From Candidatus Pampinifervens sinense (lineage in GTDB: Bacteria; Aquificota; Aquificia; Aquificales; Aquificaceae), in assembly GCA_037927135.1 (NCBI GenBank), contig JAXSPP010000007.1, positions 50,073 to 114,072 of the forward strand: a stretch of 64,000 nucleotides of DNA. The letters run 5' to 3'. Below, in pieces: positions 1,754-4,828 of this stretch. The notes below the pieces were generated by a model that was not told the DNA's origin, did not search any database, and saw nothing but the letters and a program-made list of their open reading frames with translations. How positions within the stretch are numbered: position 1 is the stretch's first letter; the number at the start of each line of letters is the position of its first letter. Made by a program: the position numbers and the translations under genes.

Positions 1754-2758
1754 ATGGATAGGTGGGAATCTTTTCTTTTTGAAGTGGCGGAAAAGGCCAT
1801 AAACTACCAAAAGCTTACAAAGGAAGAAGCGCTAAACATACTGAGAACACCCGATGAATATGTGGCCCTTATGGTCTATCTTGCACAAAAGGTTAAGAAC
1901 CACTTTCATCCACCCGATAGGATAGAGTTCTGTTCTATCATAAACGCCAAGAGTGGTGCATGTTCGGAAGATTGCAAATTCTGCGCCCAGTCTAAGTTCT
2001 ATAAAACACCTATAAACGTCTATGGCCTTGTGCCAAAGGAAGAGATAGTGGAAGGTGCCTACAGGGGTGTGGAGTTTGGAGCAAACAGATACTGTGTGGT
2101 TCTGAGTGGAAAGTGTGCCACAAGGGAAGAAGTGGAAAGAATATGCGAAGGTGTAAGGGAGATAAAAAAGGAAGGACTTCCCATAAATGTGTGCGTTTCT
2201 GCCGGAACCCTTGATGAGGAGTCTTTAAGAAAGTTAAAAGAGGCCGGTGTGAGACGTGTAAACCATAACCTTGAGGCATCGGAAAATTTCTTTCCAAAGA
2301 TAGTGTCCACCCACTCTTGGAGAGAAAGGTATGAGACCATAAAGAGGATAAAGGCTGTGGGCCTCTCCACCTGTTGTGGTGGCATATTCGGTATGGGAGA
2401 AAGCGATGAGGACAGGGTGGACCTTGCCCTAACTTACAGAGACCTTGAGGTAGACTCCATACCCCTTAACTTCCTTATGCCCATTGAAGGAACACCTTTG
2501 CAGAATGCACCGGGCATATCACCCATAGAGGCCCTAAAGGTCATAGCCATGTTTAGGTTTACAAACCCAAAGGCAGAGCTAAGGCTGTGTGGTGGAAGGG
2601 AGCAAAACCTCAGAGACTTTCACGGTATGGCTGTGCTTATGGCAAATGCCATGATGGTAGGTGGATATCTCACAAGGGCAGGAAGGGATATAAAGAAGGA
2701 CTACCAGCTTTTAAAGGATCTAAAGTTTGAAAGGCTTGTAAAAATAGAACCTGTCTAA
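1754..2758 (+). CDS. bioB: biotin synthase
   Basis: Radical SAM CSEDCKFCAQS, NHNLE, CCGGIFGMGE, GGYLT; SD AGGAGG. Confidence 0.95.
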   Translation: MDRWESFLFEVAEKAINYQKLTKEEALNILRTPDEYVALMVYLAQKVKNHFHPPDRIEFCSIINAKSGACSEDCKFCAQSKFYKTPINVYGLVPKEEIVEGAYRGVEFGANRYCVVLSGKCATREEVERICEGVREIKKEGLPINVCVSAGTLDEESLRKLKEAGVRRVNHNLEASENFFPKIVSTHSWRERYETIKRIKAVGLSTCCGGIFGMGESDEDRVDLALTYRDLEVDSIPLNFLMPIEGTPLQNAPGISPIEALKVIAMFRFTNPKAELRLCGGREQNLRDFHGMAVLMANAMMVGGYLTRAGRDIKKDYQLLKDLKFERLVKIEPV

Positions 2759-2762
2759 TTCT

Positions 2763-3287
2763 CCCTGTGAATTTCCTCTTTTTCTTTTTCTTTTTTTTAT
2801 TTTTGTCTTCTATTTAATTAAATTAAAAATAATAATAGGACCCCCCGAATTTCACACCCCCTTCGCAAGTGCTTGATTTTCAAGGATTTGCCGAAAAGAA
2901 ATTTCACACCCCCTATGAAAGCCTTGATTTTTCTTGATTTTATGAAATCAGAAAGTCCTTGAGTATCAAGGATTTTAGAAGAATTTCACAATTTCACACC
3001 CTCTAATTCTAAGTATGGGTCTTTCTGAAATTTTTTGATTTTATACCCTGTAAAATTTTTACGGAAAATACAACACTTAGGATGGGGGGTGTGAAATTCC
3101 TTCACAGGGTGTGAAATTCTGTCCAAAAGGTGCATATACCCTGTGAAATTCTTTGTAAAAATTTTACGGAAAAAGCCATACTTAGAAACAGGGTGTGAAA
3201 TTCTGCCGGGGGTGTGAAATTCCCCTGTGAAATTCTTTGAATAAAAATTATGGAAAAGGCCATACTTAGGAATAGGGTGTGAAATTC
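2763..3287. repeat. iteron-like repeat locus (GGG/CCC-TGTGAAATTC) with an AT-rich tract, between convergent genes
   Basis: 7 plus-strand copies (3087, 3107, 3139, 3191, 3210, 3223, 3275), 4 minus-strand copies (2847, 2899, 2981, 2990) and variants at 2763 and 3046; AT tract about 2776-2838; no ORF of 60 aa or more. Confidence 0.9.
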
Positions 3288-3301
3288 TTTTATGATTTAT
3301 G

Positions 3302-4828
3302 TCATAATGTGGGTGCCTTTTCGTTTATCCTGAACTGAAGGGCCTCTGCAATATGGTGGCTTGCTATCTTTTCTTCACCTTCAAGGTCTGCTATGGTCCT
3401 TGAGACCTTCAAAACCTTCATATAGCCTCTGCCTGTAAGGTTTAGCTTCTCAAGGGCACTCCTCAAGAGGTTTTTTGCCTCCTGCGTCATCACACAATAC
3501 TTTTTCACCTCTTCATTGGTCATACGTGAGTTATACTTTGTTTTGCTGTTTTTGAACCTCTCCCTTTGGATTTCCACAGCTCTAATGACCCTCTCCCTTA
3601 TCTGAGCGGATGTTTCTCCCGAACTCATACTAAGAAGCTCCTCCTTTTCCACTGGGTTTACCCAGACCCTTAGGTCTATCCTATCCATTATGGGCCCAGA
3701 TATCTTGGATTGATAGGCTTTTAGTTGCATTGGGGTGCATGTGCAGGCCTTGTATGGGTTTCCATAGTTTCCACAAGGGCATGGGTTCATGGCCACCACA
3801 AGCAAAAACTCTGAAGGAAAGCTCACCCTTCCTCCAACCCTTGAAACGGTAACCTTTCCATCCTCTAAGGGCTGTCTTAGAGATTCTATGGCCTTTCTGC
3901 TAAACTCTGGAAACTCATCAAGGAAGAGAACACCCCTATGGGCTAAGGAAATCTCCCCCGGCTGTGGTATGGTGCCACCTCCCACAAGGGCGGACTCTGA
4001 GGCGTTGGTAAGAGGATTTCTAAAGGGCCTTTTGGTTATTATGGGAGTCTTCTCATCCAAAAGGCCTGCCACGCTGTATATGCGTGTTATTTCTATAGCC
4101 TCTTCAAAGGTCAAGGGTGGCATTATGGTTATGAGCCTTTTGGCGAGCATGCTTTTGCCAGCTCCTGGAGGGCCAATAAGCATTACAGGATGAAAACCCG
4201 CTGCCGCTATCTCCATAGCCCTCTTTGCTTGATGCTGTCCATAGACCTCGCTAAAATCCACATCAAAGCTTTCAAAGTTTGAAAAGACCTCTTGAAGGTC
4301 CACCCTTACTGGCTCTTTTTTTATATTACCCGCTAAAAAATCCACTACCTCTTTTAAAGATTCAAAGCCATAAACCTCCACACCTTCCACAATGCCAGCT
4401 TCCTTTGCGTTCCTCATAGGCACTATAAAACGCCTATAGCCCAGCTCTTTCAAGGATAAAACCACCGGCAAAACGCCCTTCACAGGGTTTATCTTCCCAT
4501 CAAGGGAGAGCTCGCCCATGACCACATAATCCTCTGGGAAGTCCAAGCCTGTGGAAAGCCTTATGATGCCAAGGGCTATGGGAAGGTCGTAGAAGGTGCC
4601 TTGCTTTTTAAGATGTGAGGGAGAGAGGTTTACCGTTATCCTTTTTACTGGAAGCTGAAAGCCTGTGTTCTTTAGGGCTGACCTTACCCTGTCCTTTGCT
4701 TCGTTTATGGCCTTGTCTGGAAGGCCCACGATGGAAAACTGAGGAAGCCCGTTGGATATGTCCACCTCCACATCCACCTCAAACCCCTCTATCCCCAAAA
4801 CCCCACCGCTTTTTATCCTACAGAACAT
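3302..4828 (-). CDS. comM: YifB/ComM family Mg-chelatase-like AAA+ ATPase
   Basis: ChlI-like N-terminus (IVGLPD..E.K.RVRSA), Walker A GPPGAGKS, LFLDEFPEF, AMNPCPCG. Confidence 0.9.
   Translation of the reverse strand: MFCRIKSGGVLGIEGFEVDVEVDISNGLPQFSIVGLPDKAINEAKDRVRSALKNTGFQLPVKRITVNLSPSHLKKQGTFYDLPIALGIIRLSTGLDFPEDYVVMGELSLDGKINPVKGVLPVVLSLKELGYRRFIVPMRNAKEAGIVEGVEVYGFESLKEVVDFLAGNIKKEPVRVDLQEVFSNFESFDVDFSEVYGQHQAKRAMEIAAAGFHPVMLIGPPGAGKSMLAKRLITIMPPLTFEEAIEITRIYSVAGLLDEKTPIITKRPFRNPLTNASESALVGGGTIPQPGEISLAHRGVLFLDEFPEFSRKAIESLRQPLEDGKVTVSRVGGRVSFPSEFLLVVAMNPCPCGNYGNPYKACTCTPMQLKAYQSKISGPIMDRIDLRVWVNPVEKEELLSMSSGETSAQIRERVIRAVEIQRERFKNSKTKYNSRMTNEEVKKYCVMTQEAKNLLRSALEKLNLTGRGYMKVLKVSRTIADLEGEEKIASHHIAEALQFRINEKAPTL

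Follow-up and report, generated by a model that had tools for sequence, protein, structure and literature searches.

Introduction

The DnaA protein of Aquifex aeolicus serves as the structural model for bacterial initiators, and the closest described parallels to the locus that concerns us here are the chromosomal replication origins (oriC) of Escherichia coli, Bacillus subtilis, several Epsilonproteobacteria and Thermotoga maritima. The locus is an intergenic region at positions 2759-3301 of a stretch of 64 000 nucleotides of the genome of Candidatus Pampinifervens sinense (Aquificaceae); we refer to that whole stretch as the window. It carries two opposed groups of a repeated 9-mer beside an AT-rich tract, and is very probably the oriC of this organism, bound by DnaA through a lineage-specific box. 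The literature that we searched contains no description of an origin for the Aquificaceae, nor of this motif as an origin; origin databases lay outside that search, so that a database prediction is possible.

The account of DnaA given in the Katayama review (PMC5742627) has the helix of residues 434-451 reading the 3′ part of the box, TnCACA, in the major groove, and Arg399 reading the A/T-only 5′ part via the minor groove. In the annotated record of E. coli oriC, box R1 reads TGTGGATAA on the strand with the T-rich 13-mers, and R4 at the far end reads TTATCCACA. R1 and R4 are outward-pointing, with R1 aimed at the unwinding element. In the basal unwinding system (BUS), found in B. subtilis and others, DnaA-trios are described as 3′-NAN-5′ with the consensus GAT, preceded by a GC cluster (PMC7561715), and the search rule stated for the system asks for at least 3 trios no more than 16 bp from a DnaA box (PMC8287927). 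The footprinted epsilonproteobacterial boxes reported by Jaworski et al. (PMC5043019) are HTWTTCACW, HHATTCACA, TTWTTCACN and TCATTCACN, with a TTCAC core at positions 4-8 and variable positions 1-3; according to the same source the DnaA proteins vary at E. coli positions 435, 438 and 439, with Tyr among the residues at 439.

How does the locus in the window compare with these? Like E. coli oriC, as reviewed in PMC5742627, it has about a dozen 9-bp DnaA-type boxes in two opposed groups, an AT-rich, T-biased tract at one outer edge, and a single copy. Unlike E. coli oriC, with its outward R1 and R4, it has inward arrays; its box is AATTTCACA rather than TTATCCACA, and it has no neighbours of the gidA/mioC type. 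With the BUS it shares a first box, a 9-bp GC cluster, at least five consecutive trios with a central A and an AT tract, all conserved in three genera. It departs from that system in a trio-proximal box opposite to E. coli R1, in a double box that is 134 bp away with no tandem boxes at the trios, and in a DnaA that lacks the linker between domains III and IV.

The boxes of Thermotoga maritima have another sequence. Its oriC, with 12-mer boxes and a minimal origin of 149 bp (PMC1888806), is likewise that of a deep-branching thermophile and has a lineage-specific longer box beside an AT-rich region. The epsilonproteobacterial origins of H. pylori, A. butzleri, S. denitrificans and W. succinogenes (PMC5043019) resemble the present one in the TTCAC core, the variable positions 1-3 and a helix altered at 435/438/439. 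Those origins are bipartite and flank dnaA, whereas here there is a single cluster, in another phylum and unlinked to dnaA; and unlike these systems, of which that of T. maritima has been reconstituted in vitro, the locus in the window is known from sequence alone. Phased repeats beside an AT-rich element are also a feature of the iteron origins of plasmids and phages and of archaeal origins with origin recognition boxes (ORBs), and the G-run beside the core recalls the G-strings of archaeal ORBs. In contrast to these, there is no adjacent Rep or Orc1/Cdc6 gene here, the repeats are of 9-13 bp against 17-22 bp for iterons, they match the DnaA box, and the locus is chromosomal and conserved at the level of the family.

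Results

An array of boxes found once in the genome

The window lies on contig C7 of a genome (G000) assembled in 12 contigs and 1.546 Mb. Ranked by the distance between open reading frames (ORFs) of at least 100 aa, the gap at 2759-3301 (543 bp) is the largest both of the window, where the runner-up has 319 bp, and of the contig, where it has 428 bp. The window contains 11 exact copies of the 9-mer TGTGAAATT, every one inside 2848-3286. In 100 shuffles of the window the mean number was 0.62 and the maximum 2, and 0/100 reached 11. On the opposite strand the 9-mer reads 5′-AATTTCACA-3′, the form in which it is compared with DnaA boxes below. Four copies are on the minus strand (2848, 2900, 2982 and 2990) and seven on the plus strand, and the longer form GGTGTGAAATTC accounts for 6 of the 11. 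Three further copies of AATTTCACA have one mismatch. The components of the array are as follows.

2759-3301, no strand: the whole intergenic region, candidate oriC; the largest gap, with the top-ranking 9-mer cluster, and a single conserved cluster per genome
2848-2856, minus strand: box 1; the plus strand reads AATTTCACA; present in 12 of 14 aligned genomes
2900-2908, minus strand: box 2; 52 bp from box 1, a spacing conserved in relatives as 52-53 bp
2982-2998, minus strand: double box, with its two cores offset by 8 bp; 82 bp separate it from box 2 (82-89 bp in relatives); found as TGTGAAATTGTGAAA in the genera g1, g13 and g22
2999-3089, no strand: central spacer between the inward-pointing arrays; about 67% AT, with one-mismatch cores at 3024 and 3049 and CTAAGT motifs; alternative candidate unwinding site
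3090-3286, plus strand: right array of seven boxes, at 3090, 3110, 3142, 3194, 3213, 3226 and 3278; the seven-box pattern is also found in relatives
3104-3271, plus strand: two copies of an 84-nt unit comprising box, box, TTTTACGGAAAA and CCATACTTAG; related composite units in g22 and g13

The recurrence of boxes at 84 bp (3110/3194/3278 and 3142/3226) matches a direct repeat of 84 nt in the right array, 3104-3187 against 3188-3271, with 79% identity. In the left group, 2848 and 2900 are 52 bp apart.

Is the array unique in the genome? The exact 9-mer occurs 15 times in G000, and of the 4 copies outside the array 3 lie inside ORFs. When one mismatch is allowed, 14 copies fall in one 600-bp window, and the next best has 3. 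A genome-wide scan that was free to choose any 9-mer repeated inside 600 bp, with palindromic words counted on both strands, placed the array first with 11 copies; the runners-up, with 6, are palindromic words. There is no cluster of the canonical box TTATCCACA in G000, where 770 matches with up to one mismatch reach a maximum of 4 per 600 bp.

The single-strand fold of the array region is strong (z = -8.4), as expected of opposed boxes. A search of Rfam gave only sub-threshold miRNA-like matches, attributable to the inverted repeats, and no RNA family. One promoter-like and one terminator-like site were found, not above the level of shuffled sequences.

An earlier note on the window, made from its letters alone, had described 11 cores, four pointing left and seven right, in the largest non-coding stretch, between the 3′ ends of bioB and comM and beside an AT tract. 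The recount, the ranking of gaps and the AT content bear all of this out, as they do its spacings of 84 and 52 bp. Its core coordinates hold for a longer motif and are 1-3 nt off for the 9-mer, and to call the copies 'mostly' of the longer form was generous, given 6 of 11. Its exact 84-bp phasing survives in part: the 3194-3278 interval (84 bp) is kept in relatives, and the counterpart of 3110-3194 is 95 bp there. A scan of the genome and its relatives, which the note had suggested, returned a single conserved cluster.

Outside the cluster, the exact 9-mer is less frequent than its reversed control word in G000 (4 against 24) and in a second genome, G015 (4 against 25). Elsewhere the counts are 10 against 8 (G024) and 13 against 12 (G016), showing no depletion, and the control is a crude one. 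An avoidance of stray boxes is possible, if inconsistent among genomes. Most contigs of G000 begin or end in one of two recurring types of repeat end (such as C7:1-125 and C7:113950-114072) and, judging from these shared ends, the assembly breaks at a multi-copy insertion sequence (IS). The terminal inverted repeats of this IS contain GGGTGAGAAATT, in which 11/12 positions match the box plus its G-run. DnaA is a host factor for IS50, and the likeness of the IS repeat to the box may be functional or a matter of chance. A segment at C1:79468-79975, inside a 1.6-kb gap, has the appearance of a short copy of this IS with an internal deletion, in the manner of a miniature inverted-repeat transposable element (MITE).

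The boxes vary in step with the recognition helix of DnaA

The sequence AATTTCACA has four mismatches to the canonical TTATCCACA, and retains the TnCACA half. It has the TTCAC core of the epsilonproteobacterial boxes, being one position off HTWTTCACW and one off HHATTCACA. The DnaA of G000 is encoded on contig C1, outside the window, and matches the A. aeolicus DnaA chain 1L8Q with an E value of 3e-90. Like A. aeolicus DnaA it has about 16 residues fewer between domains III and IV than the B. subtilis protein, as judged from an alignment together with the description in PMC10721633. Its recognition helix is DHTSALYA, where both B. subtilis (the 8BTG chain) and A. aeolicus have DHTTVIHA. The E. 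coli helix is DHTTVLHA.

We compared the residue at the position of E. coli His439 in the genus of the window (g1), in other genera (g13 to g19, g21 and g22) and in two other families (f2 and f3). It is Tyr in 21/21 DnaA proteins of g1, and also in g22, g13, g19, g14, g18 and f2. It is His in g15 and in g16, whose helix stretch (DHTTVIHA) is that of the A. aeolicus chain; g17, g21 and f3 have Asn.

The sister genus g16 is the most informative of these. When its genomes were searched for pairs of canonical box cores, 7/8 had one cluster, in which about 8 to 12 boxes of the TTATCCACA type share a stretch of about 400 bp. A plus-strand group invariably precedes a minus-strand one, and the arrays thus point inward as they do in the window. 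These clusters have CGTAAGT/CTAAGT modules in common with the window locus; three of them contain TTGAAAATCA, in 2, 2 and 1 copies, and CTATTATTA lies beside a G+C-rich stretch at one outer edge. The canonical-box cluster is probably the oriC of g16. Its position is L297:1400-2000 in G051, L295:1400-2000 in G085 and C1:166939-167315 in G061, and many of its boxes are 11 bp apart.

Judged from these sequence comparisons, the locus is homologous across the family, and its boxes differ in step with the recognition helix of DnaA. This combination is the strongest argument that the repeats are DnaA boxes and the locus an oriC. On grounds of sequence likeness and co-variation, AATTTCACA is most likely a DnaA box.

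The array is conserved among changing neighbours

The 12-mer GGTGTGAAATTC was found in 19/24 genomes of the same genus. It occurs as single copies in 2/8 genomes of f2, and in 0/8 of f3. Four relatives whose 9-mer copies were listed in full have one two-orientation cluster each, containing 11 of 21, 12 of 25, 10 of 14 and 4 of 12 copies. More than 25 independent assemblies, from several genera, have the same architecture. Both g13 and g22 hold a cluster that includes the signature double box TGTGAAATTGTGAAA, g19 has 6 box copies within 550 bp, and g14, with three copies of TGTGAAAAT, perhaps has a cluster.

In the window the cluster is faced by the 3′ ends of two genes:

1754-2758, plus strand: BioB-like gene, with domain matches to Radical_SAM and BATS
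3302-4828, minus strand: ComM-like gene, with domain matches to ChlI, Mg_chelatase and Mg_chelatase_C

This context is general within g1, where each of the two genes is present at 9/10 cluster-bearing loci. In g22 the flanking genes are an MnmA-like gene and a gene with an MlaD domain, both on the plus strand and thus co-directional, and in g13 they are divergent, encoding a PMT-family glycosyltransferase and an AI-2E transporter. Of the three, only g1 has convergent flanking genes. Since convergent, co-directional and divergent contexts all occur, the array does not serve to regulate the genes beside it. It is an autonomous single-copy element, whatever genes flank it and however they are oriented.

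The ComM neighbourhoods of f3 (12 loci) and of f2 (7 loci with a full ComM match) contain no such cluster, and the 8 genomes of f2 have scattered copies of the box and no cluster. In one f3 genome (G038) comM is in two pieces on the same strand about 9.5 kb apart, at C1:231710-232537 (residues 3-278) and C1:242045-242704 (residues 285-504), as if an inserted element had split the gene.

An AT tract with a DnaA-trio-like module

Within the 64 kb, 60-bp windows with an AT fraction of at least 0.85 are found solely around a start at 2768, and the 40-bp windows at 2791-2798 are 92.5% AT. The left edge of the region and its side motifs comprise the following.

2768-2838, plus strand: AT-rich tract with T predominating on the plus strand; candidate DNA unwinding element; a pyrimidine-rich AT tract lies at the equivalent place in an alignment of 14 genomes
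2821-2838, minus strand: DnaA-trio-like run, CTA TTA TTA TTT TTA ATT on the minus strand, with the complement 3′-GAT AAT AAT AAA AAT TAA-5′
2839-2847, no strand: GC cluster GACCCCCCG, 9 bp separating the trio-like run from box 1; in three genera the equivalent G+C-rich spacer has 8-10 bp
2872-2884, no strand: palindrome CTTGATTTTCAAG, possible site of a second factor; contains a motif shared with the g16 clusters
2958-2970, no strand: palindrome CTTGAGTATCAAG, inside TCCTTGA-N3-TCAAGGA

By the search rule for the BUS the locus counts as a match, the trios 3′-GAT AAT AAT AAA AAT-5′ following the 9-bp GACCCCCCG, with the AT tract beyond. The 14-genome alignment, which covers three genera, preserves the order of the module: AT tract, TAATAG (11/14), the G+C-rich spacer, and box 1 with CCC (12/14). 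In window orientation, box 2 follows box 1 after 52-53 bp and the double box follows box 2 after 82-89 bp; about 10 nt further on are motifs of the CTAAGT and TTTTCCGTAA types. The spacings of this left half are constant across genera. The right array is more variable, with spacings of 20, 33, 62, 20, 12 and 52 in relatives against 20, 32, 52, 19, 13 and 52 in the window. The sequence CTATTATTA stands at the cluster edge in G024 and G048 as well as in three g16 genomes, and TTGAAAATCA has 6 copies in all of G000, one of them inside the array.

Palindromes of the form CTTGA-N3-TCAAG occur at 6 sites genome-wide in G000, of which those at 2872-2884 and 2958-2970 are two, and the half motif CCTTGA is also present in clusters of other genera. 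A second origin-binding factor, acting as a dimer, may recognize these palindromes. Two other kinds of element were sought. Canonical parS (a 16-bp palindrome, with up to 2 mismatches to the consensus) had no match in 5/5 genomes, and XerC/D arm patterns gave no convincing dif site.

Box polarity, strand asymmetry and the position of dnaA

Several observations weigh against the assignment of 2759-3301 as oriC, and we have gathered them here together with the related data. One concerns polarity. In the window the T-rich strand that carries TAA TAA TAG reads AATTTCACA at box 1, and both arrays point inward; relative to the AT tract and the trio-like run, the box polarity is thus the reverse of that of E. 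coli R1. Reversal of boxes 6 and 7 is reported to inactivate the B. subtilis origin (PMC6669920), so polarity is unlikely to be neutral. Polarity varies even within g16, where G051 has a canonical box next to the trio-like run and G085 an inverted one. Two readings are possible: either the AT-rich centre (2999-3089), at which every box is aimed, is where the DNA unwinds, or the linker-less DnaA of the family uses the opposite box polarity beside the trio module. A further discrepancy is that no cluster of AATTTCACA was found in g18 (one genome) or in f2 (8 fragmented genomes), although the residue corresponding to His439 is Tyr in both.

Strand asymmetry, which is not decisive, is another source of difficulty. 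We used the residual GC skew at third codon positions (GC3 skew), from which the coding-strand effect had been removed by treating plus- and minus-strand genes separately (coding skew c of about 0.16, replication term r of about 0.03); this measure is noisy, and conflicting among genomes. The raw cumulative GC skew of the window's own contig peaks at the locus, although a coding-strand skew of about 0.16 combined with convergent genes could produce such a peak. The residual skew on that contig is +0.026 [0.000, 0.054] to the left of the locus and -0.014 [-0.047, 0.018] to its right, with intervals that touch zero. Its genes divide into 25 plus and 25 minus on the left, and into 20 plus and 44 minus on the right, where they face the cluster. 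The flanks on this contig are weakly terminus-like. Two other genomes show no switch at the cluster: G016, of which 400 kb were analysed, and G015 (47% sampled), where the minimum of gene orientation is at about 0.84-1.07 Mb and the cluster at 0.26 Mb. The residual skew of G015 changes sign somewhere between 60 and 330 kb.

The complete genome G024 gives the reverse picture, and a stronger one. There the 200 kb to the left of the cluster have 56 plus and 136 minus genes and the 200 kb to the right 102 plus and 77 minus. Residual GC3 skew is negative to the left (-0.028) and positive over the 50 kb to the right (+0.047). With 59% of the first 1.22 Mb sampled and the remainder fully covered, the weighted cumulative curves of GC skew and of gene orientation both reach their global minimum in a window of 20 kb whose end lies about 550 bp short of the cluster. 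In G072 the 120 kb around the cluster are mildly origin-like on one side, with 47 plus and 24 minus genes to the right. Genes for rRNA, rpoB and rplB are co-oriented with replication from the cluster in 3/3 cases in G016, 3/3 in G015 and 2/3 in G024, as against 0/3 in G072; rpoB and rplB are linked, so that this amounts to about 5/8 independent loci, a mixed and indecisive outcome.

In the seven genomes with dnaA and the cluster on one contig, the two are separated by 15, 34, 70, 363, 480, 783 and 864 kb. The three shortest of these distances favour an origin; dnaA is far away in 4/7, and in G000 it is on another contig. Heavy rearrangement is the likely reason for the disagreement in skew and orientation among the genomes. 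Two complete and closely related genomes, 83-97% identical, differ between G024:C1:1223001-1623000 and G016:C1:996001-1396000 by an inversion that spans about 115 kb and has one of its ends 10-40 kb away from the cluster, and synteny between G000 and G024 around the cluster extends for about 10 kb only. The inversion places the cluster at opposite ends of the inverted block in G024 and G016.

Discussion

The region 2759-3301 contains a cluster of boxes and an adjacent AT-rich element at a single locus of the chromosome, in a genome that has dnaA, three of the features by which a DnaA-dependent oriC is recognized. In the mechanism that we propose, DnaA encoded on the other contig would bind about 11 to 14 AATTTCACA boxes in the two facing arrays. 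Bound DnaA would oligomerise and then open the DNA, most likely at the AT tract 2768-2838, beside the trio-like run, the 9-bp GC cluster and box 1; the AT-rich centre at 2999-3089 would be the alternative site of opening.

Could this be a cluster of DnaA boxes that is not an origin? A titration or regulatory locus, like E. coli datA and DARS or the clusters of B. subtilis, with oriC located elsewhere, is in our judgement improbable. Secondary clusters of DnaA boxes are known (PMC5742627, PMC2533591), and such a role would suit a cluster to which dnaA is not adjacent, in a genome whose skew does not flag the locus as an origin. Yet G000 holds no second cluster of either box, the next best regions having 3 copies of AATTTCACA and 4 of TTATCCACA per 600 bp; g16 shows one canonical-box cluster per genome; and in G024 the cluster is at the skew minimum. 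The extreme AT tract and the trio-like/GC module are also present, which titration loci do not need. The array might instead be a platform for a protein other than DnaA, serving partition in the manner of a centromere or acting, with its opposed groups of sites, as a replication terminus or fork trap, and to this we give the same low probability. The two orientation groups, the converging genes and the cumulative skew that peaks at the locus on its own contig are what such a site might show; with no canonical parS in 5/5 genomes the partition site is unassigned, and the conserved TCCTTGA-N3-TCAAGGA palindromes and CTAAGTATGG suggest further binders. But the core equals the DnaA box in the half that is recognised, the homologous cluster of g16 is built of canonical DnaA boxes, the G024 locus is at a minimum of skew and orientation rather than a maximum, and the convergence of the flanking genes is confined to g1.

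Still less credible is a remnant or target of a mobile element (a MITE, IS ends or an integrated iteron origin), or an artefact of assembly. The near match to the box and G-run in the IS terminal repeats would favour it; that variant, however, departs from the box within CACA, exact cores are not scattered over the genome, with 4 copies outside the cluster, and no Rep gene flanks the array. Its recurrence across several genera, in more than 25 independent assemblies, rules out both an artefact and a recent insertion. Three specific candidates were considered and set aside: a plasmid or phage iteron origin, as the flanks are BioB-like and ComM-like with no rep gene and the locus is chromosomal, conserved at family level with varying flanks; a parS/ParB centromere, as parS had no match and the boxes are not palindromic; and a MITE or repetitive extragenic palindrome (REP), as just 4 of the 15 exact copies are found away from the cluster, 3 of them in ORFs. 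The analogies of the earlier note to iterons, archaeal ORBs and centromeres consequently fall away, there being neither an adjacent Rep gene nor, in the five genomes searched, a canonical parS. Its view that the motif is not the canonical DnaA box is right as to the letters of TTATCCACA, and misses the relationship that is apparent in the TnCACA half, the TTCAC core and the canonical counterpart in g16. Its central suggestion, a platform for an initiator encoded elsewhere and possibly a lineage-specific chromosomal origin, is upheld by a unique array that forms a single cluster across genera whatever its flanks.

With the reading as an oriC preferred, what happened within the family? One scenario, to which we give an even chance, is that every oriC box switched from TTATCCACA to AATTTCACA as the helix went from DHTTVIHA to DHTSALYA (His439 to Tyr), the scaffold of trios, GC cluster and AT tract being kept along with the spacings and side motifs, with inward arrays throughout and, in the genome of the window, a trio-adjacent box inverted relative to E. 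coli. The inverted polarity, to which the absence of the III-IV linker may be related, would mean an open complex of another geometry. Three things appear to be new: a box of this type in the phylum, its apparent concerted switch with the DnaA helix inside one family, and the inward polarity of the arrays.

Software that predicts origins from TTATCCACA in the vicinity of dnaA would overlook the locus, because its box has four mismatches to TTATCCACA and dnaA is unlinked. Were an origin defined in close relatives, biochemistry and cryo-electron microscopy would gain thermostable cognate pairs of DnaA and origin, and a natural specificity pair, His-type DnaA with TTATCCACA against Tyr-type DnaA with AATTTCACA, would add to their value. 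If the assignment is true, the locus would test how universal the rules of box polarity derived from E. coli and B. subtilis are, and the family would present a natural experiment on the co-evolution of an initiator and a dozen of its sites.

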